Shown piece by piece: positions 7,525-64,000 of a stretch of DNA of 64,000 bases. A program made the position numbers and the translations under genes. Location: assembly GCA_903893545.1 (NCBI GenBank), contig CAITMJ010000009.1, positions 299,045 to 363,044 of the forward strand, given 5' to 3'. The DNA is from an uncultured Chlamydiae bacterium (GTDB lineage Bacteria > Chlamydiota > Chlamydiia > Chlamydiales > SM23-39). The first letter of the stretch is position 1. Each line of letters begins with the position of its first letter. The notes below the pieces were generated by a model. The model saw only the letters and a list, made by a program, of their open reading frames with translations. It was not told the DNA's origin and searched no databases.

Positions 7525-7540
7525 CGTTTACAAGGGGGGC

Positions 7541-8590
<1,050 letters not shown>

Positions 8591-8594
8591 TTAC

Positions 8595-8984
8595 TCACCT
8601 TCCTGTATTCGAAAGGGGTGGAAAGCCTTTTGATTGGACGTAGTTGTTAATGGTTGTGGCAATGCTGGTCTTGCCATGAAGTTTCGCTAAGAACAAAGTA
8701 TGCTCGAGAGTCTCACTTGAGATCTGATCGGTCTCCTGAAAATACGTTTGCAGCCCCTTATCATTTCCTTCTCGAGCAAACTCCCATAGAATCAATCGGT
8801 CCTTTAGATCTGCAGGCTCTCGAGGAGATGGGCACTGATAAAGTTCCCATGTAGCTTCAGTAGAGGCGCCTACAGCCTCAGCTGTAGCTTCAACAGCAGA
8901 GGTATTTATAGCTTCAACAGCAGAGGCGTTTGTAGCTTCGGTAGAGACCTTGAGAGTTAAAGCAACATCCATATACTTCTCCAT
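8595..8984 (-). CDS. Hypothetical protein with N-terminal degenerate Ala/Glu/Thr repeats
   Basis: This is an ORF-only call. The N-terminus (TEATNASAVEAINTSAVEATAEAVGASTEAT) is encoded by a degenerate tandem DNA repeat at about 8846-8950. No family was recognised. Confidence 0.35.
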   Translation of the reverse strand: MEKYMDVALTLKVSTEATNASAVEAINTSAVEATAEAVGASTEATWELYQCPSPREPADLKDRLILWEFAREGNDKGLQTYFQETDQISSETLEHTLFLAKLHGKTSIATTINNYVQSKGFPPLSNTGR

Positions 8985-9121
8985 TTTTACTTTTTTGAGG
9001 GCGAATTCTCAGCTAATTCGCATTTCCCTGTCAACTGCTATCAGGTAGTCAAGAAATCTCTTGCGTAATATACTGCGCGCGGATAGATTCTTGGATTTCG
9101 GTGGCCTTAAGGTGATCCCGA

Positions 9122-9139
9122 TTTGAACGATCGTTCAAA
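9122..9139. promoter_or_regulatory. Perfect 18-bp palindrome TTTGAACGATCGTTCAAA nested inside a 10-bp inverted repeat; candidate operator or 5'-UTR structure upstream of pknD
   Basis: The palindrome was read directly from the sequence. The flanking inverted repeat is TATACTGCGC (9069-9078) and GCGCAGTATA (9184-9193). It lies in the 235-bp intergenic region between divergent genes. Confidence 0.3.
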
Positions 9140-9219
9140 GATGGGCCGCCCCAATGGTCACAAAAATTTAAGAAGCTACCCGTGCGCAGTATACCTCGGA
9201 ATTTGGGATTACCTTTGAC

Positions 9220-11934: not shown

Positions 11935-12454
11935 GTCTGAAACGATCCTCAAAGGCTATTTCGATGTGCAGCGAGATCTGATTGAACGCGCCGACGGAAA
12001 ACAGCTCCCCTACTCCCACTGCGTCCTTCCAACACATGCGGCAGTGGTCATCGGAGAGACCTCAGATGGCCGCTTTATCCTCAACCGCGAATATAGGCAC
12101 CCAACTAGACAGTACATCTTGGGATGTCCAGGCGGTAGCCTCCACGAAGGAGAAGACCCGGTTGTCGGCGGCCTTCGCGAATTTTCTGAAGAATCTGGCT
12201 ATAGCTCCGATTCTATCGAGCTGATCGGCGTCTCCTACGCCATGCCCGCCATCTGCAATCAAAAAATTTATTTTCTTTGGGCCAAAAATGCTTACCTAAA
12301 GGGGAGTCAATCGCTCGATCCCTTTGAGTTCATTCATCCAGAGCTGAAAACAGAAAAAGAGCTGCGGCAAGAGCTTGCGTCTGGGGCCATCATCGACGGA
12401 CTTCTTCTCACAGCGCTTAGTTTTCGACGCTTAAAAATCTCCTCTACGCTATAA
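11912..12454 (+). CDS. Nudix hydrolase (ADP-ribose pyrophosphatase-like)
   Basis: The Nudix box is GGSLHEGEDPVVGGLREFSEESGY. The listed ORF start at 11726 would overlap pknD by 209 nt in another frame. A GTG at 11912 (VEKPKILKSE...) is the more plausible start, but this is uncertain. Confidence 0.7.
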   Translation: MEKPKILKSETILKGYFDVQRDLIERADGKQLPYSHCVLPTHAAVVIGETSDGRFILNREYRHPTRQYILGCPGGSLHEGEDPVVGGLREFSEESGYSSDSIELIGVSYAMPAICNQKIYFLWAKNAYLKGSQSLDPFEFIHPELKTEKELRQELASGAIIDGLLLTALSFRRLKISSTL

Positions 12455-12464
12455 TCATCCGCTT

Positions 12465-15269: not shown

Positions 15270-15286
15270 AACAAGGAGTTCTTCAA

Positions 15287-16435
15287 TCATATTGAGCGAA
15301 ATTGTGCAGTTCTTGTCGCTTTTCCTTCAAAGGAATACCTTTCTAGTTTTTCCTGACATCCGATTCGATTAAACCGCCCCATCCATTTTATGATGTAGAT
15401 AGAGAGCTCATACTGCTCTTCTTGAGAAAGCTCGATGATGAGCTCTTGAATGGGAAATAAAGGGAGATAGTCTCCAACAAACTGATAAAAATTACGCAGC
15501 ACTGGTTCAGCTGGTATTCTTCTGGAATTTACAGCAAGTTGCAAGTCTAAAGAAGCATCTTCACAGTCCATGCGAATCCAGTCCATTTTTTCAAAGAAAT
15601 TGATCATTTCAATACGAAACAAAACTTCTCTAGGCGGATATTTTTCGACGATAAAATTGCAAAGAAGTTTTCTGCTCGAAAAGAGAAGATTCCAATCGCT
15701 GTTTTGGAGGACCTCTTTAATTTCTAAGGAAGGATAGATCTGACTGAACAGCTCTAAAAAGCGATTAAATTCTCCAGATCGACATAGAAGCGCTGTAAGC
15801 TCTACGCATTCCTTGCAAATCTCTTCATAATGCTCGGGAAAAGAGCCTTCTGCTAGTGCATCTTTAATAAAACTGAAAAATAACATAATATTTTCAGATG
15901 TTGCTTCTTCTTCCATATATGCAAGCAAATGTATTGCAAGATGCCGGAGAGTCCCGGGAGAGTATTTAGGGAAAACTTTATTCAGAGAACAATCGGGATA
16001 AATAAGAGAAAAAGCACTGTTAAATTCGCCAACAAAAACATTTAAAAATTCCAAATCATTTTCTTGATCGGCTTTCGAGATTTTATCAGAGAGAGTCCGG
16101 CAAATTTCGATTGCTTTTTCCTTGGAAAAAACAAAATCTATAGGAACTGGTTCTTGCACCGGTATCATCAGAGGAGGCAAAGAAATAAACTCCATGGATT
16201 TACTGAATCTCAGTTCCATTTGAGTCACAATTGGACTTTTGACTTCAACGGCATTCTGGTCTTTGCAGCAGCATGCAGCGCCTATGTAACTAAAAATATT
16301 TGCCACGAAATCTACGACTTGTTCCGTTCCTGTAAAGCGAGCATTTTCCTGCTCAACCCTCTCCTGAAAATTTGTGACGTCTTGCAAAGTGGGATACGGC
16401 TGCGATACATTAGAAATAAATTGATAAATCGTCAT
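15287..16435 (-). CDS. Hypothetical protein, paralog A of a tandem pair
   Basis: It shares collinear blocks with the upstream gene: FPKYSPGTLRHLA vs FPKYSHGTIHCLA, EKYPPREVLFRIEMINFFEKM vs EQYPPREVIFRIERINFFETM, and FYQFVGDYLPLFPIQE vs FYQLVGEYLPFFPIQE. The region is AT-richer. Confidence 0.6.
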   Translation of the reverse strand: MTIYQFISNVSQPYPTLQDVTNFQERVEQENARFTGTEQVVDFVANIFSYIGAACCCKDQNAVEVKSPIVTQMELRFSKSMEFISLPPLMIPVQEPVPIDFVFSKEKAIEICRTLSDKISKADQENDLEFLNVFVGEFNSAFSLIYPDCSLNKVFPKYSPGTLRHLAIHLLAYMEEEATSENIMLFFSFIKDALAEGSFPEHYEEICKECVELTALLCRSGEFNRFLELFSQIYPSLEIKEVLQNSDWNLLFSSRKLLCNFIVEKYPPREVLFRIEMINFFEKMDWIRMDCEDASLDLQLAVNSRRIPAEPVLRNFYQFVGDYLPLFPIQELIIELSQEEQYELSIYIIKWMGRFNRIGCQEKLERYSFEGKATRTAQFRSI

Positions 16436-17520
16436 ATACCGCGCGCCGCCAGAATGTGTGCAGTTCTCGCAGGGCTTTCTTTAGGGAAATAAGCTTCGAG
16501 TTTTTGGTGACATATTGTTCGATTGAACGCCTTTATCCATTCCATAATGAGTCCACAAAGCAAGCATTGCTCTTTTTGAGAAAGCTCGACGACTTTTTCT
16601 TGGATCGGAAAAAATGGAAGATACTCCCCCACCAACTGATAAAACTTAGCGAGCTCCGCTTCTAACGGTAAATATTTGGAAACTACAGCCTTTACGAATT
16701 CGATAAAAACATCTTCACATTGGACACGAACCGATTTCATTGTTTCAAAAAAATTGATCCTTTCAATACGAAATATAACTTCTCTCGGCGGATATTGCTC
16801 AATAATGAACTGACAAAGAATTTTTCTATTTGTAAAGAGAAGACCTATCTCCGTTTTCTTGAGCGCCTCATGAATTTCCAAAACAGGATATATCTGCTTA
16901 AAGAAATATAAAAAGCGACTAAATTTCCGCCCTCGATCCGGATCTTTGTTGGGAATTTCCGTGAGCTCAACGCATTCTCTGCGGATTTTTTCATAATTAT
17001 TGAAAAGCAGGTTCTTTGGCATTCCATCTGCAATTTCACTTAAAAATTGTTTAATCTTTACCGACTGCTCATCTCGTTCTATATACAAGAGCAACTCAGA
17101 CGCTAGACAATGGATGGTTCCATGGGAGTATTTAGGAAAAAATTGATCTAGAGAGCAGTTTGGATAAACGTTTGCAAAACTCTCATTAAATTTCGAAGTA
17201 AAATAATCTAAAAAATCTAGATCGTTTTTTTCTTTGGCTTTCAATATTTGACCAGAGAGAATCCGGCAAGTTTTCGTCAGGTTCTCTTTTGAAAAAGGAA
17301 AATCTCTGATCGATCTTTGCTCTACTTTTATGGGAGGAGGCAAAGGATCGCGAGGGATAGAACGAGAGATTTCTTGCTGTAAAGTGGCTACCTTTCTCAT
17401 CGTTATTTCATGGATTTGTATTTGCAAAGAATCGTTATGGGCAGGCACAATTTTTTTATTTCCAGTCGGCAACTGGATGTAATTTGCCGAAAAAGCGGAA
17501 AGACAGTTCAAAGCACTCAT
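16432..17520 (-). CDS. Hypothetical protein, paralog B of a tandem pair
   Basis: It shares the same sequence blocks listed for paralog A. Its stop overlaps the paralog A start in an ATGA junction (16432-16435). Confidence 0.6.
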   Translation of the reverse strand: MSALNCLSAFSANYIQLPTGNKKIVPAHNDSLQIQIHEITMRKVATLQQEISRSIPRDPLPPPIKVEQRSIRDFPFSKENLTKTCRILSGQILKAKEKNDLDFLDYFTSKFNESFANVYPNCSLDQFFPKYSHGTIHCLASELLLYIERDEQSVKIKQFLSEIADGMPKNLLFNNYEKIRRECVELTEIPNKDPDRGRKFSRFLYFFKQIYPVLEIHEALKKTEIGLLFTNRKILCQFIIEQYPPREVIFRIERINFFETMKSVRVQCEDVFIEFVKAVVSKYLPLEAELAKFYQLVGEYLPFFPIQEKVVELSQKEQCLLCGLIMEWIKAFNRTICHQKLEAYFPKESPARTAHILAARGI

Positions 17521-17664
17521 AGTTCTTAAATTTTTCCGTAATTATTAATTTTGTGAAACAAATCTTGAAAAGAGGCGACTATCATACCCTTTCCTTCCTT
17601 TTTTGTCTCCTGATAAACTTGTATTTGCGATTCTTCTCCCATCCATGGTAAAACCTAAGAACCT

Positions 17665-18672
17665 ATGATCCTCGCCTCCCCCGATGAACTAGAAAAAGAG
17701 CTCCCTGGCCGCGGCCCTCTTCCTTTCCGAGCAGCAGCCGCTAAAATTCTACGCAATGAGGAGCCACGGATAGCCCTTCTTTTAGGCCCATGTTCGATTC
17801 ACAATCCTGAAGAGGCTCTCGCATTTGGCCAAAAAGTCAAAGATCTGCAAGAGCGCCTTTCCCATTTCTTTCTCATTATGCGGGTGTTTTTTGAAAAGCC
17901 CCGCTCGCGCCTCGGCTGGAAAGGGCTCATGTACGACCCTTTTCTAGACAGCTCGAATAATTTGGAAGAAGGGCTCAGAAGATCGCGTAGGCTTCTCTTA
18001 GATTTAACCGATTTAAACGTCCCTTGCGCAACGGAATTTTTAGAGCCTCTCGTCGCTCCCTACCTGGCCGATTTGATCACATGGGGCCTCATTGGAGCCA
18101 GGACAAGCGCTTCTCAGCCACACCGGCAATTGGCCTCTGGCTTTGATTTCCCGATTGGATTTAAAAATGGGGTCTATGGAGAACTAGAGCCGGCATTGCA
18201 TGGGATAGCTTCAGCCCAAATACCCCATACCCACTTCTCGATCGATCGAAGCGGCAGGCTCGCCGCCGTTCAAACGACAGGCACTTCTTTAGCCCACCTT
18301 GTCTTACGGGGCAGTGAAAAAGGGGCCAACTGCGAGGAGGCGCATATTCAAGCGGCCTTGCAAGCGCTCCGGGCGCATCATTTAGAAGAGCGGCTGGCCA
18401 TCGATTGCTCTCATGGCAATAGCGGCAAAGACCCCAAGAGGCAAAAGTGGGCGTTTGAAATGGCTATTTCACAGATCGAAGCGGGCAACCGAGCTATCCG
18501 CGCGGTCATGCTCGAGAGCAACCTCTCCCCTGGCAAACAACCGCTCAGCGAAGACCTCCGTTACGGCGTATCGATCACGGATGCCTGCCTTGGCTGGGAA
18601 GAGACGGAAGAGCTCGTCTTGCGAGCAGAAGAGCGGTTATCCTTAACGTCTATGAGCTCTGTCCAAAAGTGA
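17665..18672 (+). CDS. aroG: 3-deoxy-7-phosphoheptulonate (DAHP) synthase, class I alpha (AroG/F/H-like)
   Basis: It is collinear with E. coli AroG blocks recalled from memory: GPCSIH, MRVFFEKPRS..GWKG, GARTSASQPHRQLASG, GFKNG, IDCSHGNS and ITDACLGWEETE. Confidence 0.9.
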   Translation: MILASPDELEKELPGRGPLPFRAAAAKILRNEEPRIALLLGPCSIHNPEEALAFGQKVKDLQERLSHFFLIMRVFFEKPRSRLGWKGLMYDPFLDSSNNLEEGLRRSRRLLLDLTDLNVPCATEFLEPLVAPYLADLITWGLIGARTSASQPHRQLASGFDFPIGFKNGVYGELEPALHGIASAQIPHTHFSIDRSGRLAAVQTTGTSLAHLVLRGSEKGANCEEAHIQAALQALRAHHLEERLAIDCSHGNSGKDPKRQKWAFEMAISQIEAGNRAIRAVMLESNLSPGKQPLSEDLRYGVSITDACLGWEETEELVLRAEERLSLTSMSSVQK

Positions 18673-19070
18673 TGTTTCCAAACCTCTAAGACTTCTTTCT
18701 CTTTTGTGACCACTTCGACTTTGTACGTTAAAATCCGTAAATTCTTGTCTTCAGTCGGAAAGTAAAGATCGACAAAGTCCCGCTTTCTCTCAACGGGGCG
18801 AACGAAACATTGCTCTGAATTATCCCAAAGCCGGACGGTGATGAGGAGGCTTAATTGCCGATCGAATTGACTCTTTGGAAAATCCCATTTTACAAGGAGT
18901 TTTTGCCCATTTGGCGGGTGAGCTCTTCTCGGATCTGGTGTATCTATATGCGTGCTTGCAAGGTGTTTTCCATCGATCCACTCTTGCTGCACGTAGAGAT
19001 GATTTTTATAACATCCAGAGAGAAGCAAAACCTTGAGAAAAAGGAGAGAAAAGAGTACTTTTTTTTGCAT
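18561..19070 (-). CDS. Hypothetical lipoprotein
   Basis: The N-terminus MQKKVLFSLLFLKVLLLSGC has a lipobox (LLSGC). The start was taken at the second Met (19070). The 3' end overlaps the convergent aroG by 112 nt. Confidence 0.5.
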   Translation of the reverse strand: MQKKVLFSLLFLKVLLLSGCYKNHLYVQQEWIDGKHLASTHIDTPDPRRAHPPNGQKLLVKWDFPKSQFDRQLSLLITVRLWDNSEQCFVRPVERKRDFVDLYFPTEDKNLRILTYKVEVVTKEKEVLEVWKHHFWTELIDVKDNRSSARKTSSSVSSQPRQASVIDTP

Positions 19071-19632: not shown

Positions 19633-21030
19633 TTATTGCTGATCTGGATGGACCATTTTCTTAAGGTCGACCAGAGCGTCGAACTTTTCGGGGGAAAGGA
19701 TGCCGAGCTTGATAGCGGCGCTTTTTAAGCTGATGTCTTCCTGATAGGCTTTATGGACGATTTTAGCCGCTTGGTCGTAGCCGATTGACTCATTGAGCGC
19801 AGTCGCCAGCATGAGCGATTTTTCCACATATTCGGCGAGGCGCTTGCGGTTTGGCTGGATGCCGATGAGGCATTTATCGCAAAAGGCGTTCACGCCGTCG
19901 GCTAAGAGATGGATCGATTGGATGAGGTTATGGATCATGAGGGGTTTATAGACGTTGAGCTCAAAATTGCCCTGCGATCCTGCAATGGCAATGGCCGCAT
20001 CGTTGCCTATCACTTGGACTGCGACCATGGTCAACGCTTCACATTGGGTTGGGTTAACTTTACCTGGCATGATGGAAGAGCCGGGTTCGTTTTCTGGCAA
20101 GAAAAGCTCATGTAGGCCACAGCGAGGACCCGAACCGAGCCAACGGATGTCGTTGGCGATCTTCATCAATGCAGTCGCTGTTTGCCTGAGAGCTCCGCTC
20201 ATGCCGACGATGGCGTCGTGTGCGGCTAGCGTTGCAAATTTATTGGATGCCGTAGAAAAGAGAACGCCGGTCAGTTCGCTGATGATCTCACAAACTCTTG
20301 TGGGGAATTTAAGAGGGGCGTTAAGGCCGGTTCCAACGGCTGTGCCTCCTAGAGCAAGCTCTGAGAGGGGCTCGAGGAAAGACTCAATGGCATCGATGGC
20401 GTATTTGATTTGCGCGGCATAGCCGGAGAACTCTTGGCCGAGTGTAATTGGAGTTGCATCCATGAGGTGGGTTCTTCCCACTTTGATAAGATCGCGAAAC
20501 TCATGGGCTTTTTGATCGAGCACCTGGTGGAAGTGGGCAAGGGCGGGGAGTAGTTTTTTTCGGAGTAGAAGCGTTGCAGAGATGTGCATTGCGGTGGGAA
20601 ATGCACAGTTAGACGACTGAGAGCGGTTGACGTCGTCATTGGGGTGGATCGGTTTTTTAGAACCTAAGACTCCCCCCGCTTTTTCAATGGCTTTATTGCC
20701 AATCACTTCATTGACGTTCATGTTGGTCTGTGTGCCAGAGCCGGTCTGCCAGACGAGAAGTGGAAAATGACCATCGAGTTTGCCTTCTAGGATCTCATCG
20801 GCTGCATAGCGGATAAGATCCCGTTTTTCTTTCGAAAGGACATTTAGCTCAGCGTTGGCAATCGCTGCGGCCTTTTTGATGATTGCAAGAGCGTAGATCA
20901 CTTCGATGGGCATTTTTTCACAGCCAATGTTAAAGTTTTGGAGCGAGCGTTCGGTTTGCGCTCCCCAATACTTATCGGCCGGGACTCTGATCTCGCCCAT
21001 GGTGTCTTTTTCTATCCGCTCTTTAGTCAT
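19633..21030 (-). CDS. fumC: Fumarate hydratase class II
   Basis: The signature [15 protein letters not shown] is present. The N-terminus ([10 protein letters not shown]) and the 465-aa length are typical. Confidence 0.95.
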
Positions 21031-54537: not shown

Positions 54538-55137
54538 TTATCGAGAAGAAAAAACGAAAACACTGTCGTCTTCTTTCTCGTCGTTTGTTTGGCCTGAAGT
54601 AGGCGCTGTAGAAATAGCAGGTGTAGACGATTTACGAGCGACAGGAGAGAAGGAGAAAATATCATCATCGTTCGATCGACTAGACATAGGCGACTCTGTC
54701 GCGCAAATAATCGGCATCGTTGCCGGATTTGGCAACTGATACTTTGGCAATTTCGGCACTGCTAAAAACCAACCCTTTTGGACAGCTGGAGGGGTTGTAA
54801 TCAGGTTGCTCTGATTGAGTGGAGAAGCCGTTGAAAAATCAAATTTTCGCTCAGGAGGAATCATCACCTGAAGAGCAATTGTAGAGACTTTCTCGCTAAC
54901 AGTTGTAGACTGTGAACGATCTGTTCTTTCAAATTTAAAGAAAGTTTTACTATCATCGATTCGAAGCGGCTTGATGAGCGTGGCCCTCGGAGACTTAATG
55001 CCCCCTCTATTATCGGCTTTCTGTTGATTCGGATTTGCAATAGTTATAGCGCTTGTTGCCCTATCAGAATCCTGCTGACCCTGTGGCGGATGGACTAAAA
55101 CACTATATTCAGAACTAGCTCGAAGGCGAGACAGCAT
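54538..55137 (-). CDS. Hypothetical Ser/Thr/Pro-rich protein (orphan)
   Basis: A strong RBS, TAAGGAG, sits 7 nt upstream of the ATG. The composition is low-complexity and S/T/P-rich. It is flanked by an extremely AT-rich spacer and followed by a terminator. Confidence 0.6.
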   Translation of the reverse strand: MLSRLRASSEYSVLVHPPQGQQDSDRATSAITIANPNQQKADNRGGIKSPRATLIKPLRIDDSKTFFKFERTDRSQSTTVSEKVSTIALQVMIPPERKFDFSTASPLNQSNLITTPPAVQKGWFLAVPKLPKYQLPNPATMPIICATESPMSSRSNDDDIFSFSPVARKSSTPAISTAPTSGQTNDEKEDDSVFVFSSR

Positions 55138-55207
55138 AAAAATCTCCTTAAAATAATTTATTAAGACTATATTATAATAATATTAAGAATTAAAAACAAT
55201 AGTATAA

Positions 55208-55492
55208 TTAATTTTTGACTAACTTTGAATCTATCTCGTCAAAGTCAAATTGACAATCATCCGATGAAGTTGTTTTTTTAACAGGAGAGAAAATACGCTG
55301 CTGGATAGAGCGCATGCGTGGATCTGTCTGCTGTGTTAAATCTTTTTTTAAATTCGGAAGACTACCATAGTACTTAAGCCTGATCGACTTAGCCGAAACC
55401 TCTGCATCGGAGGTCGGCGTCATAGGTAATGACTGAGAACGCTGTAACGGGGGCATAGGCTCAAACATGAGCAAAATTTTAACCCCTGTCAA
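55208..55492 (-). CDS. Hypothetical small protein (orphan)
   Basis: This is an ORF-only call. The listed start is a TTG 2 nt after the upstream stop, and an ATG alternative lies at 55468. No family was recognised. Confidence 0.35.
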   Translation of the reverse strand: MTGVKILLMFEPMPPLQRSQSLPMTPTSDAEVSAKSIRLKYYGSLPNLKKDLTQQTDPRMRSIQQRIFSPVKKTTSSDDCQFDFDEIDSKLVKN

Positions 55493-55494
55493 AA

Positions 55495-56670
55495 TTAAAA
55501 TCCATAATTAAGATCGAATTCCCAGTAGTGGGTCCGTTCCTTGGCGAACTGACCTTCTAGGGAGTATCCGTGGTGGAAACCTACAAACAGCCTTAGCTTC
55601 CGGCCGATCCCCTGCAGCTTAGACAGCTCATAGCCAAAGCGATAAGTGCCGTCAAAGTTCCAATTGAGCTGTTGCAAATTGCGCCAGTGGAGCGCCAAAA
55701 AGAGCGTTCCATAGAGTTTTTGATAGTACGATTTATGACCCAAAAAGCGGGCTTCCGTGCCGTAATCGATATACATCGGCTTCCATAAGTAGGTTGGATC
55801 GCTATGCACAATAGCCCCCGGCACCGCATAAAAGCGGATTGCTTCTGAGGCCTGATAAGAAGCTGCAAACTCTACGTATTCATTACTTGGATTGACTCGG
55901 ACTACATCTGGGTGGTTTACCATGTATTCATCCCCTAAGTGGCCAGAGATATGATAAACTCTAAAGCGGAACGACCATTTATCTTTTGCATACGTGAGAG
56001 GAATCCCTACATAAAAGTCCGTATTGACCAGCTCTGTGCCGCCGCCGACATTTGGGTTGGGGTTTAAGTTAAATACAGACCAAATGCCAGACTCGATCCC
56101 GATCTGCATATCTCCGCCGTAGAATAAATCGATCCAACGATAGACTGCAAAATCATCGCCCAAAGCGATATTTGCCGTTTGAGGGCCGATCACTTTGTCC
56201 CCTGCTCGGTATCCGAGAATATAAGTCACATTTCGAGGATCTGCAACGAGCGGCTGAAAGAGTTCCGTCATCTGTGGAAACCAGACGCCTGTCGTCTGCG
56301 GCCGGCGCACATATTTCTCTCTTAGCTCTTCATCTTCTGGGGGCACTCCTTCAAGAACATAGACCTCTTGAACTCCTGGCACATCCTTGATGAATGCAAT
56401 CATGGATTTTTCGAGCATTTTATTTTTCGGTAGATTCGCCAGCCAAACCTTGCGTTTTTTCACGATCACGATGACTTTGTATTCGGCGTAATGCATATCG
56501 ATCAAAGCTTGCAAATACCCTTCGAAATAAGGGTCTGTCGCATATTTGACTTCTGCCGGCAGTCCATCGGTGCGCGTCATGAAGACGGCAACCTCTTCTT
56601 TGTCTTTATTTTCCTCTTCTGCAAAGAGCAAAGAGCCGAGTAAAGAGAATGCAAGAACAAAAGGGCGCAT
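55495..56670 (-). CDS. Putative outer-membrane beta-barrel protein with N-terminal BON-like domain
   Basis: The signal peptide is MRPFVLAFSLLGSLLFA. A BON-like segment follows (YLQALIDMHY...VWLANLPKNKMLEKSMIAFIKDVPGVQEV). The C-terminal two-thirds has alternating aromatic/Gly strands and ends in the terminal aromatic signature LNYGF. Confidence 0.6.
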   Translation of the reverse strand: MRPFVLAFSLLGSLLFAEEENKDKEEVAVFMTRTDGLPAEVKYATDPYFEGYLQALIDMHYAEYKVIVIVKKRKVWLANLPKNKMLEKSMIAFIKDVPGVQEVYVLEGVPPEDEELREKYVRRPQTTGVWFPQMTELFQPLVADPRNVTYILGYRAGDKVIGPQTANIALGDDFAVYRWIDLFYGGDMQIGIESGIWSVFNLNPNPNVGGGTELVNTDFYVGIPLTYAKDKWSFRFRVYHISGHLGDEYMVNHPDVVRVNPSNEYVEFAASYQASEAIRFYAVPGAIVHSDPTYLWKPMYIDYGTEARFLGHKSYYQKLYGTLFLALHWRNLQQLNWNFDGTYRFGYELSKLQGIGRKLRLFVGFHHGYSLEGQFAKERTHYWEFDLNYGF

Positions 56671-58132: not shown

Positions 58133-58205
58133 GGGGCAATAGCTCAGTGGTTAGAGCAGCGGACTCATAACCCGTAGGTCCACAGTTCAAGTCTGTGTTG
58201 CCCCA
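58133..58205 (+). tRNA. tRNA with CAT anticodon (elongator Met, or Ile2 if lysidine-modified)
   Basis: The sequence is GGGGCAATAGCTCAGTGGTTAGAGCAGCGGACTCATAACCCGTAGGTCCACAGTTCAAGTCTGTGTTGCCCCA. It has a perfect 7-bp acceptor stem, a 5-bp T stem and anticodon loop CTCATAA. There is one A-C mismatch at 31:39. The D-arm and T-loop resemble E. coli ileX (from memory), so its identity is ambiguous. Confidence 0.88.
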
Positions 58206-58373
58206 CATTTCTTTCCGAGTTTATCGCACTAAAAATGAACTGGTTATGCAACAGCATCAAAACCAGCCCAAATTGCGATTTCTCTCCGTGGACCATTTGT
58301 GGACCACTCGCTTACAACAATTGGCGATAACCCCAGCAGCTAACCTTTGAAAACTAAAACCAAAGGTAGCTTC

Positions 58374-59441
58374 ATGAAAGGCATCGACAAACGCACCCAC
58401 AAAGACGGGACGATCTCCTACCGCGCCCGAGTTCGAATCAAGGGACATCCAGTCCTCATCCAATCGTTCGCGTCCAAAACCCTCGCGACGAAATGGAAGC
58501 GCGACACCGAATCAGCTGTTGAACAAGGCAAATATGCATATGACAAACCTGGAAGCAAACATACTCTTGCCGACCTCGTCGATCGCTATATTGAAAGAGT
58601 CTTACCCACCAAACCCAAGAACGCCCGCAATGTGCACCAACACCTTCTCTGGTGGAAACAAGAGCTAGGAAGTTACCTCCTCTCAGACATCAAACCTAAT
58701 CTCATCGCTCAAAAACGCGATGATCTTCTTTCAAATCTGACCTGCAAAGGCAAATCACGTTCCCCCACCACTGTAGTTCGCTACCTTGCCAGTTTGTCTC
58801 ATGCCTTCGCTATCGCGGTTAGGGACTGGGAATGGATCCAGGAAAACCCCATCATGAAAATCTCAAAGCCGAAAATTTCCAATGGAAGAACTCGCTTTCT
58901 CAACGATGATGAAAAGGAAAAGCTGCTATTTGCTTGCCGAGAAAGCGAATCAAAAGGACTCTACCCAATTGTTATACTAGCTCTTTCAACTGGCATGAGG
59001 AGAGGCGAAATCATGAATCTCAAATGGGGCGATATAGATTTAGCCCAAGGTTCAATCCTCTTACAAGCCACAAAGAATGGTGAGCGGCGTTTCATTCCTC
59101 TTGTCGGAATAGCTCTAGATCTTTTGCGTTCAAAATACGCCAATCAAAACCTAGGCTCTCTCGTATTTCCTGCTCCACATTCTCCATGTAAACCTATCGA
59201 CATTCGTTCTGCTTGGGAAAGGGCTCTGAGCAAAGCCAATATTTTCAACTTCCGCTTTCATGACCTTCGGCATACGGCCGCTTCCTACTTAGCCATGAAT
59301 CAAGCGAGTCTGCTAGAAATTGGAACTCTGCTTGGCCATAAAACTGTCCAAATGACCAAGCGGTACGCCCATCTCTCCAATGCTCATCTGTATTCCATAA
59401 CATTAACTCTCACCGATAAGTTGTTCAGTAATCAGAAATAA
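58374..59441 (+). CDS. int: Tyrosine recombinase / phage-type integrase
   Basis: It has an N-terminal SAM-like arm/core-binding region. The catalytic residues are in context: MRRGEI (Arg), FHDLRHTAAS (HxxR) and GHKTVQMTKRYAH (His...Tyr). The ATG is at 58374, whereas the listed start at 58347 is a TTG. Confidence 0.9.
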   Translation: MKGIDKRTHKDGTISYRARVRIKGHPVLIQSFASKTLATKWKRDTESAVEQGKYAYDKPGSKHTLADLVDRYIERVLPTKPKNARNVHQHLLWWKQELGSYLLSDIKPNLIAQKRDDLLSNLTCKGKSRSPTTVVRYLASLSHAFAIAVRDWEWIQENPIMKISKPKISNGRTRFLNDDEKEKLLFACRESESKGLYPIVILALSTGMRRGEIMNLKWGDIDLAQGSILLQATKNGERRFIPLVGIALDLLRSKYANQNLGSLVFPAPHSPCKPIDIRSAWERALSKANIFNFRFHDLRHTAASYLAMNQASLLEIGTLLGHKTVQMTKRYAHLSNAHLYSITLTLTDKLFSNQK

Positions 59442-59550
59442 TCATAAATTTTTAATTAAAAACACATTACTGATTATTTAGCAACAAACAGAAAGTGTAA
59501 CGAAAACAATAAATATGCTAGACTAGCTGGAACTTAAATAAGCTTTCTAA

Positions 59551-62500
59551 ATGAAAAAAAATGATTTAACACTGGTTCGACCAGATCTAGCATCACAGAT
59601 TCATCCTCACAAAAATCTAAGCTTATCGACTAAAACTATTTCGTCAAAATATACAGGAGCAATCTGGTGGATTTGTGACAAGGGACATGAATGGAAAGAA
59701 TCCCCATACAATAGATGTAAGCAAACTGACTCTAGTTGTAAATTTTGCAAATTTTCGTTGGCATCCACTCATCCTAAACTTCTAAATTTATGGCATCCTA
59801 CAAAAAATACTGATTGTTCTCCTTACACAATAACAGCAAAAACTCATAAGAAAATTTGGTGGAAATGCCCTATTGCCGATGAACATGAATGGGAAGCTCC
59901 ACCATACAATGTTGCAAGACCAAAAAATACAACCGGATGCCCTATTTGCAGAGGATTTAAAGTTATCAAGTCTAATTGTCTTGCCACAACGCACCCAGAC
60001 GTAGCCTCTGAATGGGATCATGTAAAGAATGAGTCCCTGACTCCATATGACGTCACTGCTGGCAGCGGACGCAAAGTCCATTGGAAATGCGCTAATGGAG
60101 TAGATCATACATGGATTGCTCCTGTAGGCGCCCGTACTTCTCGATCAGAAAAAAAACACGGCAAATGTCCATTCTGTCAGGGACAAAGAGTTGCTTTATC
60201 GAATTGCTTAGCAACGCTTTTCCCAGATATTGCAAAGGAATGGGATCCTGAAGCTAACTCCAATACACCATATGATGTAAGCCCTGGTAGCGGTCAGAAG
60301 GTCGCTTGGGTTTGTAAAATTGATTCTACTCATAAATGGATTACAGCAGTCTCGTCTCGAGCAGGCAGAAGAGATAACACTGGATGTCCTTATTGTAAGG
60401 GCAAAAAGACATCTCCAACAAATTGCTTAGCAGCTCTTTATCCAGATATCGCAAAAGATTGGGATTTTGAGAGCAACTCTATAACTCCCTATGAAGTAAC
60501 AGCCGGTAGTGGCCGAAAAGTAAGTTGGATATGTAAAAAAGACTCATCGCATAAGTGGAAAGCAACAGTAAGTGATCGAGTGCATGGGACAGGATGTCCA
60601 TATTGCCGGGGTCAAAAAGTTGCTTCATCAAATTGTTTAGCTATACTTTACCCAGAGCTTGCTAAAGAATGGGATCCTTCTGCCAATCAAAAAACCCCTT
60701 ACGATGTGACTCCTGGAAGTAACGATAAAATAGTCTGGAGATGTCGAAGGGACCCTTCTCACGTGTGGGAGTCTACAATAAAAAATCGAGTGAAGGGAAG
60801 AGGATGTTCATACTGTAACCTTGGTTGGACAATAGAGAATATTCGCCACTTTGTACAATCTCTAATTCCTTATCTGGATCGAATTTCTCCAGCCGGGCTT
60901 TATGTTCTGTTTCAGCAAAATGGTTTGCTGAGTATTGACAGCCTTAGTAAAGGAAAATCATTTGTGCAAGCTCTTAAAACGGGTCGCTTTCCTAAGGATG
61001 AACTTGAGAAATTTGTCGGCGGTCTTCCTTCCTTAGTAGATCAATTTTTAAATAATCCAGATTCGTCCTTAGAAGATAATTCACAAGCTTCTAGTAATTG
61101 CTTATCTGAAAATGAATTGATATTTGAAGACGACTTCCCAATTGTTGAAACAAAAGATATTTTATCCGCTTTAGACAGCAAACTTTTTTCAAATCTTGAT
61201 AATGAAGCTATTGATTTCTTTATCAAGGAAGCTGTAGCCAAAATTTGGCAACACACCTTTTCTAATGAGACTGAGGCTATTCGGCAACTTGAGCAGTATA
61301 ATAATACTGGTGCCTATCCACAAGAAGTAAAAAAACTTTTTTTATCCGATTATGTAGGTGCAAAAGAATTGCAAATACCTTCTGGATATAACTTTAAAGT
61401 AAATGGAGACATTTCCCCTCCTAATCTAATGCAGCGGTTTACTGCTTATATTGTGAAGTCACGTAGAAGATTAGGAAACTGGTCAGGAACAGGTGCAGGC
61501 AAAACACTATCTGCCATTCTTTCTAGCAGAGTAATCGACGCTCATTTTACTCTTATTTGTTGCCCAAATAATGTAGTGAACGGATGGGAAAATAAGATAG
61601 GAACTATCTACCCAGATAGCATCATTTTTATCAAAGATACTAAGACATCTATACCGCCAAATAAACATGCATACTTGATACTCAACTACGAATTTTTCCA
61701 ACAGCCGCAGTCTGAAAGCAAGCTTAAAGATCTCATAGAACGTCAAAAAATAGACTTCATTGTCATCGATGAAATTCACTACTCAAAACAACGCATTGTC
61801 GAAGACATGTCAAAACGCAAAAAGGTCATTTCAGCACTATTATCAGAAGCTGCGGCTAAAAATGATAACCTCCATGTTTTAGGCATGTCTGCTACTCCAG
61901 TGATTAATAATCTTTTTGAAGGTAAAACGCTGATCGAGCTTATCACTGGCTTTATTCATGATGACTTACGCACCATTCCATCCGTAGGTAATTGCATAGC
62001 ATTATATCAGAAGCTGGTATCAACTGGAATCAGGTGGCTTCCTCGCTATCAACAGAAAATAGATGTAAAAACGATTGAGGTAGATTGCAGTTCTCATCTT
62101 GAACAAATTAAAAATGTTAGCCTGCAAGGTTCTATGGTCGATCTTGAGGCTGTTCTAACTCAAGTAAAGATTCCAATAATTCTAGAAAATCTTAAGCCAA
62201 AAACCATTGTGTATACCCATTATCTCAAAGACATTCTGATTCCATTAAAGGAAGCTATTGAGAATCATGGCTGGAAAACCGCAATTTTTTCAGGTGACGA
62301 TAAAAGCGGCCTAGAAGAATTTATCAAATTTGATGCTGATATTCTGATTGCTTCAAGCTGCCTAGGAACTGGTATTGACGGATTACAGCATGTGTGTAAT
62401 CGAATCATCATCAACACATTGCCCTGGACCCATGCCGAATTTGAGCAATTAAAAGGCAGAATTTATCGACAAGGGCAAAAAAACGATTATGTTGATATCT

Positions 62501-63336
62501 TTGTGCCCCTCACTTACGCGAGTATCAATGGAGAACGGTGGTCTTGGTGTGATTCAAGATGGAATCGTATCCTATTTAAAAAATCAATTGCCGATGCTGC
62601 TGTTGATGGAATCATCCCAGAAGGGCACTTAAGAACTCCTGCTCAGGCATATCAAGATACTATGAACTGGCTAAAGCGGCTGGAAGAAGGTGATTTGCAT
62701 GAGATTGAGCGACGAAAGATTGATCTTCGGCTCTCAGATGAAGTTATCCAAAGGGGCGTAAGGAAGTTTGGCGATTTTTCTAAAATGAATCATCAGTTAA
62801 ATTCTACAAACAGCACTATAACTCATAAAAGATTCCAAAAAAGTCCAGAGGATTGGGAGTATTATCATGCTATGTACCGCGAAGCACGGAAAGAGTGGGC
62901 GATCGTTCCTTATCAAGAAGCAATCAAATGGTGTAAAGCGCGACCTCATCTAGTAATTGGAGATTTTGGCTGTGGAGAGGCATTACTTGCCAAAGAGGTA
63001 GAAAACAAGATTTATTCTTTTGATCATGTAGCGATTAATGAAGATGTCACATCTTGTGATATAGCTCATGTCCCACTAGATGATGACTCTTTGGATGGGG
63101 GAATTTTCTCTCTTTCATTGATGGGAACTAACTACGTAGATTACATAAAAGAGGCTCATCGATGCTTAAAACTCGACGGACACCTTTGGATTGCAGAAGC
63201 AACCTCTCGATTCCAAAATCTTATCGGATTTGAAGATGAACTCGCTAAAATTGGGTTTGATATTGTTCGTATCCAAATAAAAGGCGATTTCACTTTTTTA
63301 CGGGCTATCAAAAGCGATAGACGCTCAATTTCCTAA
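59551..63336 (+). CDS. Giant fusion protein: 6x CxxC zinc-ribbon repeats, linker, SNF2-family ATPase and Rrp8-like (Methyltransf_8-type) SAM methyltransferase
   Basis: Zn-ribbon repeats span aa ~8-423. SNF2 motifs are GTGAGKT (61486-61506), CPNNVVNGW, VIDEIHY (61762-61779), MSATPVINNLFE, SSCLGTGIDGL and QLKGRIYRQGQ (62446-62478). The C-terminus (IGDFGCGEALLA...VTSCDIAHVPLDDDSLDGGIFSLSLMGTNYVDYIKEAHRCLKLDGHLWIAEATSRF) is collinear with eukaryotic Rrp8/NML as recalled from memory. Confidence 0.85.
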   Translation: MKKNDLTLVRPDLASQIHPHKNLSLSTKTISSKYTGAIWWICDKGHEWKESPYNRCKQTDSSCKFCKFSLASTHPKLLNLWHPTKNTDCSPYTITAKTHKKIWWKCPIADEHEWEAPPYNVARPKNTTGCPICRGFKVIKSNCLATTHPDVASEWDHVKNESLTPYDVTAGSGRKVHWKCANGVDHTWIAPVGARTSRSEKKHGKCPFCQGQRVALSNCLATLFPDIAKEWDPEANSNTPYDVSPGSGQKVAWVCKIDSTHKWITAVSSRAGRRDNTGCPYCKGKKTSPTNCLAALYPDIAKDWDFESNSITPYEVTAGSGRKVSWICKKDSSHKWKATVSDRVHGTGCPYCRGQKVASSNCLAILYPELAKEWDPSANQKTPYDVTPGSNDKIVWRCRRDPSHVWESTIKNRVKGRGCSYCNLGWTIENIRHFVQSLIPYLDRISPAGLYVLFQQNGLLSIDSLSKGKSFVQALKTGRFPKDELEKFVGGLPSLVDQFLNNPDSSLEDNSQASSNCLSENELIFEDDFPIVETKDILSALDSKLFSNLDNEAIDFFIKEAVAKIWQHTFSNETEAIRQLEQYNNTGAYPQEVKKLFLSDYVGAKELQIPSGYNFKVNGDISPPNLMQRFTAYIVKSRRRLGNWSGTGAGKTLSAILSSRVIDAHFTLICCPNNVVNGWENKIGTIYPDSIIFIKDTKTSIPPNKHAYLILNYEFFQQPQSESKLKDLIERQKIDFIVIDEIHYSKQRIVEDMSKRKKVISALLSEAAAKNDNLHVLGMSATPVINNLFEGKTLIELITGFIHDDLRTIPSVGNCIALYQKLVSTGIRWLPRYQQKIDVKTIEVDCSSHLEQIKNVSLQGSMVDLEAVLTQVKIPIILENLKPKTIVYTHYLKDILIPLKEAIENHGWKTAIFSGDDKSGLEEFIKFDADILIASSCLGTGIDGLQHVCNRIIINTLPWTHAEFEQLKGRIYRQGQKNDYVDIFVPLTYASINGERWSWCDSRWNRILFKKSIADAAVDGIIPEGHLRTPAQAYQDTMNWLKRLEEGDLHEIERRKIDLRLSDEVIQRGVRKFGDFSKMNHQLNSTNSTITHKRFQKSPEDWEYYHAMYREARKEWAIVPYQEAIKWCKARPHLVIGDFGCGEALLAKEVENKIYSFDHVAINEDVTSCDIAHVPLDDDSLDGGIFSLSLMGTNYVDYIKEAHRCLKLDGHLWIAEATSRFQNLIGFEDELAKIGFDIVRIQIKGDFTFLRAIKSDRRSIS
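59572..60819 (+). repeat. Six tandem ~70-aa coding repeats (zinc-ribbon/treble-clef-like, DUF4379-like)
   Basis: The repeat consensus is NCLA..(Y/F/H)P(D/E)(I/V/L)A.EWD...N..TPY(D/E)V(T/S).GS..KV.W.C....H.W.......R......GCP(Y/F/I)C.G.K. Units start near aa 8, 68, 141, 217, 290 and 360. Confidence 0.8.
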
Positions 63337-63343
63337 CTGGAAA

Positions 63344-64000
63344 TTAAAGCTGTTTGATTCCTTCAATAAAACTTAGCAAATGGTTAACATTAACAACAAA
63401 AACTGTTTTTTCATAGCTTCCTGACTCTGTGAGTATTTCCTGCTTTCCAACATCCCATTTCACTGAATCTGAAAAATTAAAACCCAAATAATTTTCCTGT
63501 TGAAAATTACAAAAGTCTTGCAAATCCCCATCAGCATCGATCTGCTCTGGCTTAAATTCAATTGAATAAAGCTTCGCATTTGTTACAATTACAGGAAGGA
63601 ATGTGACAAGCTCTGAAAGAAACTCCCGCTTTTGGTGTAGCTTCCAAATATATGCTTCCAAGTTTTTGAAGGTTTGCCGCGTGAATCCATGTAATATCTC
63701 TTCTCTGCCCGCTCTCTCAGCTAGTTCCGGCGCAAAATCTACTTTACCCTTCTTAGCTCTCTGAAACGCACCTTGATTTTCTAAAACTTCAAGACAATAA
63801 GGAAAAGTTTTTAATTTAGATTTTAGCATGGCTTGTGGATTGATCTGTATTGTTCTCAATCCTGCATTTTGCTGTATTAAACAACCTTCATTTCTATATT
63901 CTGTAGATCTCAAAAAATAAAAGGAGTAGAAAGATCTTTTACATTCAAATAAAAAACGGAGACGAAATGTCGAAAGCAAGCAATCAATCTCAATCCTTTC
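63344..64000 (-). CDS. Hypothetical protein, probably 5'-partial (frame open to the window edge); possible PD-(D/E)xK-type nuclease motif near the edge
   Basis: The reading frame continues past the listed TTG start (63979) to nt 64000 (ERIEIDC...). The segment EIDCLLSTFRLRFLFECKRS fits a D-x13-ExK restriction-endonuclease-like pattern. An internal ATG alternative is at 63829. The gene is convergent with, and 7 nt from, the giant gene. Confidence 0.45.
   Translation of the reverse strand, partial: ERIEIDCLLSTFRLRFLFECKRSFYSFYFLRSTEYRNEGCLIQQNAGLRTIQINPQAMLKSKLKTFPYCLEVLENQGAFQRAKKGKVDFAPELAERAGREEILHGFTRQTFKNLEAYIWKLHQKREFLSELVTFLPVIVTNAKLYSIEFKPEQIDADGDLQDFCNFQQENYLGFNFSDSVKWDVGKQEILTESGSYEKTVFVVNVNHLLSFIEGIKQL

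Follow-up and report, generated by a model that had tools for sequence, protein, structure and literature searches.

Close to the right end of a 64,000-nt stretch of contig CAITMJ010000009.1 (GenBank assembly GCA_903893545.1, positions 299,045 to 363,044 of the forward strand), from an uncultured Chlamydiae bacterium, a tRNA-Met(CAT) gene is occupied by a 12.35-kb integrative island that carries a gene for a 1261-aa protein with a zinc-finger array, an Snf2-type ATPase and a methyltransferase domain. We refer to the whole 64,000-nt stretch as the window. The island, its attachment (att) sites and its horizontal transfer are, taken together, close to certain. As the best overall explanation we propose a mobile island of conflict genes in which the large protein would act on DNA and may serve immunity; we give this explanation a little better than an even chance.

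A tRNA-Met gene is the integration site of the island

The tRNA-Met(CAT) gene lies at 58133 to 58206 on the plus strand (ARAGORN; 69.7 bits with the Rfam tRNA model on the equivalent stretch of L001). L001 is a 57.6-kb contig of a metagenome-assembled genome (MAG; GCA_947444285.1) that encodes an identical 1261-aa protein. Because L001 and the window differ by 2 substitutions over 12,274 shared bases, we let L001 stand for the sequence past the end of the window; adding 51726 to an L001 coordinate gives the window coordinate. The EF-Tu encoded in the window has its closest named relatives, at 90 to 92% identity, in MAGs labeled Chlamydiales or Parachlamydiales. L001 has three copies, in direct orientation, of the tRNA part that runs from the anticodon loop through the 3′ end, at 6438 to 6486, which is the intact tRNA gene, at 18791 to 18839 and at 20022 to 20070. 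The 12-mer core of this repeat occurs 3 times, where 0.05 occurrences would be expected. Identity is 96% between the two distal copies and 73% between them and the copy in the intact gene, and the T-arms of the distal copies differ from that of the intact gene by paired, compensating changes.

The left attachment site, attL, is marked by a 17-bp identity block, GCGGACTCATAACCCGT, in the anticodon stem-loop (58159 to 58175, plus strand), and the same 17 bp are found at attR (L001 18786 to 18802, equivalent to window positions 70512 to 70528, beyond the window). Judging from this identity, strand exchange must have taken place within the GCGGACTCATAACCCGT block. In a tandem copy of the island in a third assembly, L101 (GCA_964440435.1, contig CAYTRZ010000004.1), homology begins at the equivalent of L001 position 6435 (window position 58161), inside the anticodon loop.

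Joined together, the 5′ half of the window tRNA and the distal 3′ half give a 73-nt sequence with an exact match in two other Chlamydiales MAGs; this reconstruction would be the ancestral tRNA that was displaced by the island. One of the two MAGs, L004, has the same left flank as the window (a major facilitator superfamily [MFS] transporter, a DUF1207 protein and a 580-aa gene, with 68 to 71% nucleotide identity). It has an intact tRNA of the ancestral type and encodes no island proteins, but synteny of its right flank could not be shown. The tRNA of L004 has itself taken up a 1.2-kb insert, unrelated to the remnant in L001 described below, and is accompanied by a degenerate 3′ half. An earlier note made from the letters of the window had proposed a site-specifically integrated island here and had pointed to a distal attR repeat and an empty tRNA site in a relative as the places to look. 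The repeat is present (L001 18791 to 18839, with the 17-bp block at 18786 to 18802), and L004, syntenic on the left, provides the site without the island.

The present tRNA-Met(CAT) gene is a hybrid, with a 5′ part from the host and a part 3′ of the anticodon loop derived from the island. The island apparently provides the present 3′ part and has left the old 3′ part at its far end as attR. We place the island, with hardly any doubt, at L001 ~6433 to 18839, that is, from 58159 to ~70565 in window coordinates; its left 5.8 kb are inside the window. The attP junction of the circular form is predicted to read ...GCAGTGCTGCGGACTCATAACCCGTAGGTCCACAGTTCAAG..., and the empty attB is predicted to consist of the tRNA 5′ half, then ...CTCATAACCCGTCGGTCTCTGGTTCAAATCC..., and then the flank from L001 18840 onward.

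The composition of the sequence changes at the same boundary. GC content is 39.8% at 58207 to 64000, versus 47.9% across the other 58 kb of the window. Segments of 5.8 kb elsewhere in the window have a mean of 47.9%, a standard deviation of 1.3 and a minimum of 44.7%, so that the drop on the island side amounts to ~6 standard deviations. GC content at third codon positions (GC3) is also lower, in keeping with the earlier note's description of the cargo as richer in AT than the genes to its left.

Between the second and third tRNA 3′ halves, at L001 18840 to 20021 (beyond the window), there is a 1.2-kb remnant with genes for an 81-aa truncated peptide deformylase and a 139-aa YchJ/SEC-C protein and a 128-aa open reading frame (ORF). 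This remnant appears to be older than the 12.35-kb island. Repeated use of the tRNA has left stacked remnants, and we conclude that the tRNA is an integration hot spot.

Two further observations concern tRNA folding. The island side of attR (L001 18740 to 18832, beyond the window) resembles a degenerate whole tRNA (GGGGAGTTAGCTGCTGGGAAGTGGCGGCAGTGCTGCGGA plus the 3′ half); its fold energy is not better than that of shuffled sequences (z = -0.36), and 19 nt of this stretch, AAGTSGCGGCAGTGCTGCG, recur 139 nt upstream, immediately before a block of candidate arm sites described below. In the minimum-free-energy fold of the hybrid tRNA at 58133 to 58206, AGGUCC from the island pairs with GGACU of the anticodon stem and thereby prevents a cloverleaf; the reconstructed ancestral tRNA does fold as one. 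This misfolding may mean nothing, as the hybrid still scores 69.7 bits with Rfam.

int1 and repeats with the layout of arm-type sites

The tRNA is directly followed, as the earlier note had said, by a gene for a tyrosine recombinase. This gene, int1, encodes 355 aa from an ATG at 58374 and ends at 59441 on the plus strand; the longest ORF begins at 58347. The product matches Pfam Phage_integrase (107.6 bits; E value, 7.9e-31) and Int_N, and its translation contains the R..HxxR..H..Y residues.

Between the tRNA and int1 is a conserved 46-nt block (58285 to 58330, plus strand) that we propose to be the P′ arm. It contains the tandem repeat GTGGACCA-TTT-GTGGACCA at 58288 to 58306, 68 nt upstream of the int1 ATG. 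A second 46-nt block, 85% identical and with one mismatch in the dimer, is located near the other end of the island, at L001 18656 to 18701. The distance to the att block is 113 nt for the dimer in the window, which is on the right of attL, and 109 nt for the distal dimer, which is on the left of attR. Two occurrences of the dimer pattern were found in the extended contig, compared with 0.00 expected by chance. In L101 and in another sister island, L019 (a 2.28-Mb contig, ERZ25039522), the dimer is 100% conserved, whereas the surrounding int1 region is merely 84 to 86% identical. With the two dimers ~110 bp either side of the core, they would flank it symmetrically and in the same orientation in the circular form, with 11-bp spacing within each dimer. 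This is the layout of the arm-type sites of lambda-like integrases. We propose the GTGGACCA dimers as candidate arm-type sites of int1, much as the earlier note had suspected when it called the repeat at 58288 to 58306 a possible binding site of a recombinase or regulator.

The same note had linked the core of this repeat to its reverse complement, GGTCCAC, inside the tRNA. The 7-mer is indeed there, at 58177 to 58183 (plus strand), in the island-derived T-arm and variable region, but the functional link fails. We rejected GGTCCAC as a binding site and regard the match as probably due to chance, because both sister islands read GGTCCCT at this position while their arm repeats are intact.

Sister islands indicate recent transfer between distantly related hosts

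From the tRNA to a second integrase gene, int2, the island in L019 is 92.5% identical to that in L001 at the nucleotide level. It lies behind a tRNA-Met with a different left flank, composed of purine biosynthesis genes, and is the only copy to be interrupted by an insertion sequence element. In L101, the island is 91 to 95% identical and lies behind a tRNA 3′ half only, downstream of, and in tandem with, another mobile element that encodes AAA_25, a DnaG-type primase, a resolvase and a Gp49/helix-turn-helix pair. On the same L101 contig, tuf-rpoBC are 72 to 77% identical to those of the window, and neighboring genes are 64 to 66% identical. Since the island is so much more similar (91 to 95%) than the host core (72 to 77%), it has almost certainly moved recently between distantly related hosts.

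The L101 copy has also lost 1.8 kb, including the zinc fingers, and as a result the first two-thirds of int1 continue in frame into the rest of the large gene. The fusion, in the region L101 9788 to 13036, is a 1011-aa ORF.

The large protein joins zinc fingers, an Snf2-type motor and an Rrp8-type methyltransferase

The large gene spans 3,786 nt, at 59551 to 63336 on the plus strand, and encodes 1261 aa with Pfam matches to DUF4379 (six copies), ResIII/Helicase_C/SNF2-rel and Methyltransf_8; the 3.8-kb multidomain gene of the earlier note is thus present with identifiable domains. Residues 1 to 424 (59551 to 60822) are six DUF4379 treble-clef zinc fingers (304.7 bits over six stretches). They are followed by an all-helical linker without a recognizable family (residues 425 to 625; 60823 to 61425), which consists of helices only in an AlphaFold2 (AF2) model, by an Snf2-fold superfamily 2 (SF2) ATPase (residues 626 to 1010; 61426 to 62580), and by a class I S-adenosylmethionine (SAM)-dependent methyltransferase of the Rrp8/nucleomethylin type (residues 1074 to 1261; 62770 to 63336). 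The AF2 model covers residues 425 to 1261 and was built with 40 homologs; its mean predicted local distance difference test (pLDDT) score is 81.4.

The ATPase was assigned from Pfam and Foldseek. Its motifs are intact (Walker A GTGAGKT, DEIH, SATP and QxxGRxxRxGQ), and the motif residues of both the ATPase and the SAM site are invariant in 25 to 40 homologs. The Pfam SNF2-rel match is just below the cut-off (23.5 versus 24.9), and the best Foldseek matches in the PDB are Mot1, Ino80, ISWI, Chd1, CSB, RapA and SsoRad54, with E values down to 1e-15. For the methyltransferase, the Methyltransf_8 match (residues 1074 to 1251) scores 162.6 bits against a cut-off of 27. A sequence search matched PDB entry 2ZFU, human nucleomethylin/RRP8, with an E value of 1.6e-35 (2.7e-51 with a profile), and the model superimposes on 2ZFU in Foldseek with a TM score of 0.84, a root mean square deviation of 1.4 Å and 37% identity. 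No DNA N6-adenine, N4-cytosine or C5-cytosine methyltransferase family was matched by the large protein in Pfam, NCBIfam or PADLOC. The model of residues 425 to 1261 contains no nuclease-like alpha/beta fold, and the region between fingers and ATPase is all-helical.

We propose that the DUF4379 array is a nucleic-acid recognition module. It is ~40% identical to the arrays of relatives while the core ranges from 48 to 85%; in some relatives it is replaced by INT_rpt-like repeats, and others lack an array. This divergence and swapping would fit a target-recognition module. Hypervariability of the fingers at short range was considered and rejected: L001 and L019 differ by 3 to 5% evenly in zinc fingers, linker, Snf2 domain and methyltransferase (1.6% in a 63-residue connector). 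DUF4379 arrays are known as parts of restriction-type endonucleases of giant viruses (PMC5513546), and CapR/DUF4379-like arrays as DNA-binding modules of phage homing endonucleases (PMC12350094). Because the protein combines an Snf2 fold with finger arrays that are otherwise fused to DNA endonucleases, we conclude, with moderate confidence, that it acts on double-stranded DNA.

The alternative substrate is RNA. The large protein could be an Rrp8-like methyltransferase that makes N1-methyladenine (m1A) in rRNA (or methylates tRNA), with RNA-binding fingers and an ATPase that remodels ribonucleoproteins, and it could, for example, alter translation or confer resistance to an antibiotic or toxin. 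Two of the three modules have characterized relatives in eukaryotic ribosome biogenesis, since the methyltransferase is 37% identical to human nucleomethylin/RRP8 and the only solved DUF4379 proteins, found as PDB matches, are the kinetoplastid mitoribosomal proteins or assembly factors mS66 and mt-SAF33. However, the top 50 PDB matches except 2ZFU are all Snf2-family ATPases, most of them solved on DNA or nucleosomes, with no DEAD/DEAH RNA helicase among them; DUF4379 arrays are also fused to restriction-type and homing endonucleases; and a patchy distribution on mobile elements is unusual for housekeeping enzymes that modify ribosomes. We consider action on RNA or the ribosome improbable and favor duplex DNA as the substrate.

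The island combines a small integrative backbone with exchangeable conflict genes

From left to right, the island consists of int1, the large gene, a 265-aa gene (minus strand), p351, p97 and p240 (minus strand), int2 (minus strand), a 335-aa gene and a pair of genes matching AbiEi_2 and NTP_transf_8. In the direction of transcription, the minus-strand order is int2-p240-p97-p351 and then the 265-aa gene. The int2 product is 55% identical to that of int1. The products of p351, p97 and p240 have no match in Pfam, PHROGs, PADLOC or NCBIfam, and the sequences give the impression that p97 is an excisionase-like helix-turn-helix protein and p351 a winged-helix protein. Neither virion, conjugation nor transposase genes were found in the 12.35-kb island with these four collections, nor was any excisionase, replication or transfer gene recognizable. 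The scans, which included the part of the island beyond the window, agree with the earlier note that genes for phage, integrative and conjugative element (ICE) or transposon structures are missing, and we rejected a prophage or ICE reading of the island for this reason.

The 335-aa product has a weak match to HEPN_AbiU2 (E value, 0.0013, below the Pfam cut-off), with RDRVAAH, which fits Rx4-6H, within the matched region. The two genes of the AbiE-like pair, which lie outside the window, overlap; AbiEi_2 scores 31.4 bits (cut-off, 21) and NTP_transf_8 scores 43.4 bits (cut-off, 26.3). The pair has no match to the AbiE models of PADLOC, and the toxin is not of the PF08843 type. In L019, the slot of the 335-aa gene is taken by a patatin phospholipase gene (PADLOC E value, 3e-160) followed by a CD-NTase gene (6e-113), which together constitute a type I cyclic oligonucleotide-based antiphage signaling system (CBASS). 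The slot in L101 has the same patatin gene, and the contig ends just afterwards. L019 and L101 cease to be homologous to L001 precisely where a 22-bp motif upstream of int2 has its 3′ edge, and it is here that the HEPN-like gene and CBASS are switched.

GC3 values separate the genes of the island. GC3 is 29 to 34% in the large gene and in the genes of 265 and 335 aa, whereas int1, int2, p351, p97 and p240 have 42 to 50%; NTP_transf_8 has 46% and AbiEi_2 37%. Flanking host genes have 51 to 58%. We conclude that the island is a small integrative backbone with exchangeable conflict genes.

The 22-bp motif, AAAAATGGCG(C/T)C(G/A)GTGGAAAA, also written AAAAATGGCGTCAGTGGAAAA, occurs ~75 nt upstream of int2 and again in a hairpin loop between p240 and p97. 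Its two copies are at L001 14119 to 14140 and 16077 to 16098 (window 65845 to 65866 and 67803 to 67824, beyond the window). Other copies are at 16278 to 16299 and 18236 to 18257 in L019 and at 1554 to 1575 (minus strand) in L077, and the motif is also retained upstream of a 78%-identical int2 orthologue. The motif may be a site of int2-dependent cargo exchange, somewhat like integron attI.

The large gene belongs to a widespread family that travels alone

A homolog search with the large protein returned 2012 proteins with an E value of ≤1e-5. The best 120 of these are nearly all full-length and have the same three modules. The hosts listed are Cyanobacteria, Actinobacteria (Rhodococcus), Planctomycetes, Chloroflexi (Ktedonobacteria), Babelales (Babeliaceae), Chlamydiae (Simkaniaceae), Heimdallarchaeota and other archaea, and the records are named only as zinc-ribbon domain-containing proteins or helicases. 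With PADLOC (2023) and NCBIfam, no match rose above threshold, and those below it were to the helicase C-domain of proteins such as DrmD, BrxH and HmaA; in the literature we found no description of the zinc-finger/Snf2/Rrp8-type architecture. Neither the large gene nor its nuclease neighbor matches any PADLOC system, and the view of the earlier note that the combination fits no named system stands.

We then looked at the neighborhoods of 92 loci with relatives of the large protein (80 from a metagenome scan, together with genomic, plasmid and viral loci; 61 had at least 1 kb downstream), using ORF calling, hmmsearch with a profile of the 265-aa nuclease candidate, and all-against-all clustering of neighbors. 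The sole neighbor family to recur across unrelated loci is a tyrosine integrase, in 8 of the 92 loci, usually upstream on the same strand. All other clusters of neighbors among the 92 loci are sets of near-identical contigs, and no conserved downstream partner was found. In one of the eight loci with an integrase (L082, 36 to 6671), a tyrosine integrase gene comes after a tRNA-Ser(GGA), and a relative of the large gene with 41% identity lies another 2 kb away. Here the same cargo sits in an independent tRNA island of a distant lineage. Since integrases alone recur and there is no conserved partner, we regard the large gene as a stand-alone unit that travels on integrative elements and plasmids.

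Such a unit might serve the element rather than the host. The large protein would then help the element to escape restriction or to become established, as an orphan methylase that its Snf2 motor moves processively along incoming element DNA, in the manner of DarB of phage P1 or of the large helicase-methylase fusions known from plasmids. Full-length homologs are indeed encoded on plasmids, namely, the mobilizable Crinalium plasmid, from a cyanobacterium, and Rhodococcus plasmids, in one case beside an FtsK/SpoIIIE transfer gene. Three IMG/VR contigs encode relatives, and the large gene is retained in several chlamydial integrative elements with differing backbones. It is a solitary gene without a nuclease, and viral Snf2-methylase giants are among the fold matches. 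On the other side, chromosomal homologs in an archaeon (L008 to L010) and a cyanobacterium (L011, with only a Y1 transposase nearby) have no mobility genes in the flanks that were fetched; sequenced phage isolates match the zinc-finger array only; the methyltransferase does not belong to the DNA amino- or C5-methylases, the types that block restriction enzymes; and the base composition of the large gene groups it with the swappable cargo and not with the island backbone. We judge a role in service of the element to be unlikely, less so than the RNA-based alternative.

A phage origin of the large gene was also considered and rejected, given the restriction of phage isolate matches to the finger array and the count of three IMG/VR loci. 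One of these, IMG/VR contig UViG_3300009481_000013 (L014, 1787 to 16131), is a viral contig that encodes a tmRNA and 22 tRNAs. Inside its tRNA array, at 7992 to 10996, lies a split zinc-finger/Snf2 relative of the large protein, with no match to the methyltransferase part.

The convergent nuclease candidate is at most a lineage-specific addition

The gene convergent with the large gene ends at 63344, 7 nt from the large-gene stop codon. Its C-terminal 218 codons lie within the window (63344 to 64000, minus strand), and it continues to the equivalent of position 64141; L001 contains the full 265 aa. The putative catalytic residues E21, D53 and E66-x-K68 are located at or past the end of the window. 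An indexed search found 7 close homologs, and an exhaustive search with a hidden Markov model found 111 cluster representatives. In an alignment of 50 sequences with 20 to 33% identity, the only invariant residues are G17, E21, D53 and K68, with E51 and E66 nearly so. The 265-aa protein itself has no match in Pfam, PHROGs, PADLOC or NCBIfam. Pfam NERD is matched by 15 of the 50 relatives (best E value, 1.3e-5), and the profile of the family matches Card1/Can2-type nuclease domains (DUF1887/Card1-type 8bao, 1.8e-4, and Can2 7bdv). An AF2 model built from the 7 close homologs has a pLDDT of 38, and its fold is unusable. Because E...D...ExK is conserved, some relatives match NERD and the family profile matches Card1/Can2, the nuclease motif is well founded. 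The earlier note had described a tightly convergent gene with a possible nuclease motif; the gap is 7 nt, and the conserved PD-(D/E)xK signature lies mostly beyond position 64000.

The earlier note went on to read ATPase, methyltransferase and putative nuclease as the footprint of a restriction-like or antiphage defense module. Put as a two-gene system, the methylase would mark self and the Snf2 motor, together with the NERD nuclease, would restrict unmarked DNA. For such a two-gene system speak the 7-nt distance between the stop codons, the unusually low GC3 of both genes, the conservation of the nuclease catalytic residues, and retention of the pair in L019, L101 and, with a different backbone, L015. 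Related chlamydial elements also have other genes at the downstream convergent position (369 aa in L005 and 278 aa in L007), which might be alternative effectors; these are unrelated genes, with no similarity to the 265-aa protein and no match in Pfam or PADLOC. However, the nuclease family adjoins the large gene in just 3 of the 92 loci, all of them chlamydial islands (L001, L019 and L015), and L016 has a member of the family but not the large gene. Being convergent, the two genes do not form an operon; on the minus strand, the nuclease gene comes after int2-p240-p97-p351; and no other downstream partner is conserved. Because the nuclease adjoins the large gene so rarely, the set of ATPase, methylase and nuclease is specific to a lineage and is not a conserved system. 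With a methyltransferase that is Rrp8-like and not a DNA methylase, the restriction-like module does not hold up in the form in which it was put forward, and we consider a two-gene restriction-modification-like system quite unlikely. We conclude that the nuclease is at most a lineage-specific add-on to a large gene that otherwise stands alone.

Proposed mechanism and weight of the evidence

In the mechanism that we propose, int1, a lambda-type integrase, would catalyze recombination between attP and the tRNA, within the anticodon stem-loop. At the core of attP would be a tRNA copy that starts in the anticodon loop and includes the 3′ end, with tandem GTGGACCA arm sites ~110 bp to each side. 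Integration would give the tRNA a new 3′ part and place the old one at the far end as attR, with a still older copy 1.2 kb further on. In the large protein, the fast-evolving, swappable zinc-finger array would pick the target, the Snf2-type motor would track along the duplex or distort it, and the Rrp8-like SAM methyltransferase would modify a base exposed by the motor. The adjacent NERD-type nuclease might be an optional effector in this chlamydial lineage.

A role of the large protein in defense or immunity has, in our view, just short of an even chance and is the likeliest of the roles considered. It is favored by the company of AbiE-like, HEPN-like and CBASS genes, by the cargo-like base composition, by the patchy distribution across phyla and by the fast-changing recognition module. 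Several points weigh against the combined explanation of a mobile island with a DNA-acting, immune protein. The attP site, excision and integrase binding have been deduced from sequence alone, and the part of the island past position 64000 is taken from a second assembly (L001) and not from the window itself. No experiment or known homolog ties the large-protein family to defense, and the PADLOC and NCBIfam matches all stay below threshold and concern the generic helicase C-domain found in DrmD, BrxH and the like. The only characterized relatives of the methyltransferase, Rrp8 and nucleomethylin, methylate rRNA; together with the mitoribosomal nature of the solved DUF4379 proteins, this makes an RNA substrate possible. 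The large protein has no nuclease domain of its own and its gene has no conserved partner, so that nothing points clearly to restriction as the mechanism. Finally, carriage by plasmids and a few viral contigs fits an anti-defense function equally well.

More speculatively, the large protein could represent a new class of single-polypeptide, DNA-tracking base methyltransferase. The modular, quickly diversifying finger array would set the target, and the mark would be one that known restriction-modification systems do not use, for example, N1-methyladenine, as made by the characterized relatives of the methyltransferase. Placed on double-stranded DNA opened by the motor, it would either label self or poison an invader by blocking base pairing, in which case immunity would work through enzymatic damage to DNA, with optional nucleases such as the NERD neighbor to finish the task. 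We regard this as a long shot.

Other features of the window

Between a GT10 fucosyltransferase-like gene and the DUF1207 gene, at 54500 to 55500, GC content dips to 38%. The two minus-strand genes in this dip (199 and 86/94 aa) encode Ser/Pro/Thr-rich proteins for which no precomputed Pfam match is on record. At 58 to 64 kb, promoter-like sites are no more frequent than in shuffled sequences, and terminator-like sites are ~2 standard deviations over the shuffle mean; both results are uninformative.

Comparison with known systems

The island itself is a textbook kind of element. Like other islands that target tRNA genes by means of lambda- or P4-type integrases, it has an integrase gene beside the tRNA, a copy of the tRNA 3′ end that rebuilds the gene and a displaced 3′ repeat at the distal end. 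Arm-type repeats flank its core, older remnants lie in tandem with it, its composition is deviant, and it is absent from a relative. It differs from these islands in that it has two paralogous integrases (55% identity) in opposite orientation and no excisionase, replication or transfer gene recognizable with the four collections, and in that its host is an environmental chlamydia. Its cargo resembles that of defense islands and cargo hot spots with AbiE or CBASS, with an AbiE-like pair, a HEPN-like gene and a type I CBASS that is swapped in at a sharp breakpoint in the sister copies. Unlike in those islands, the large gene and the nuclease match no PADLOC system, and the AbiE-like pair is not recognized by the PADLOC AbiE models.

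With type ISP restriction enzymes (LlaGI), DISARM, BREX and Hma, the large protein shares a recognition module, an SF2/Snf2 ATPase and a SAM methyltransferase, as well as carriage on mobile DNA. In contrast to this group, it has no nuclease in cis, its methylase is of the Rrp8 type and not a gamma-class N6-adenine methylase, and a zinc-finger array takes the place of the target recognition domain. The matches to DrmD, BrxH and HmaA span only 50 to 130 residues and reach 34 bits, whereas the NCBIfam cut-offs are 610 to 950, and none of the core genes of DISARM, BREX or Hma (DrmA/B/C/M, PglX/Z, BrxC and HmaB/C) was found among the neighbors examined. DarB of P1 and the helicase-methylases of other phages and plasmids similarly unite an SF2 motor and a methylase in one solitary, element-borne giant. 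However, matches are limited to the ATPase, the methylase class differs, and there is no sign of packaging or of leading-region expression.

The C-terminal domain is a member of Methyltransf_8 with intact SAM motifs, like that of Rrp8/nucleomethylin (2ZFU), which makes m1A in large-subunit rRNA. The likeness is one of sequence and fold, and, unlike in Rrp8, the domain shares its polypeptide with an Snf2 motor and a zinc-finger array and is encoded on prokaryotic mobile elements. The 265-aa protein shares E...D...ExK with the NERD and Card1/Can2 nucleases; its relatives match NERD, and its profile matches Card1/Can2. It differs from them in having no CARF or other sensor domain, and its C-terminal half, with a conserved PVIVTNAxLY, matches nothing.

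Significance

To our knowledge, few mobile elements or defense islands have been described in the chlamydial phylum, and genetic tools are scarce. The island is an unusually well-resolved case in environmental chlamydiae, with its att core and candidate arm sites mapped, stacked insertions, an alternating cargo slot and recent transfer between hosts with ~75% identity in core genes. A working integrase/att pair could be useful in chlamydiae.

The large protein is a variant among the helicase-methylase enzymes of mobile DNA, and the large family to which it belongs appears to be unstudied. Its architecture is unusual, although a new mechanism has not yet been demonstrated. The protein couples a motor of the chromatin-remodeler type with a eukaryote-type rRNA methyltransferase fold. 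Were DNA its substrate, prokaryotic epigenetics or immunity would gain a new class of enzyme; were the substrate RNA, the protein would be a mobile enzyme for the modification of ribosomes.

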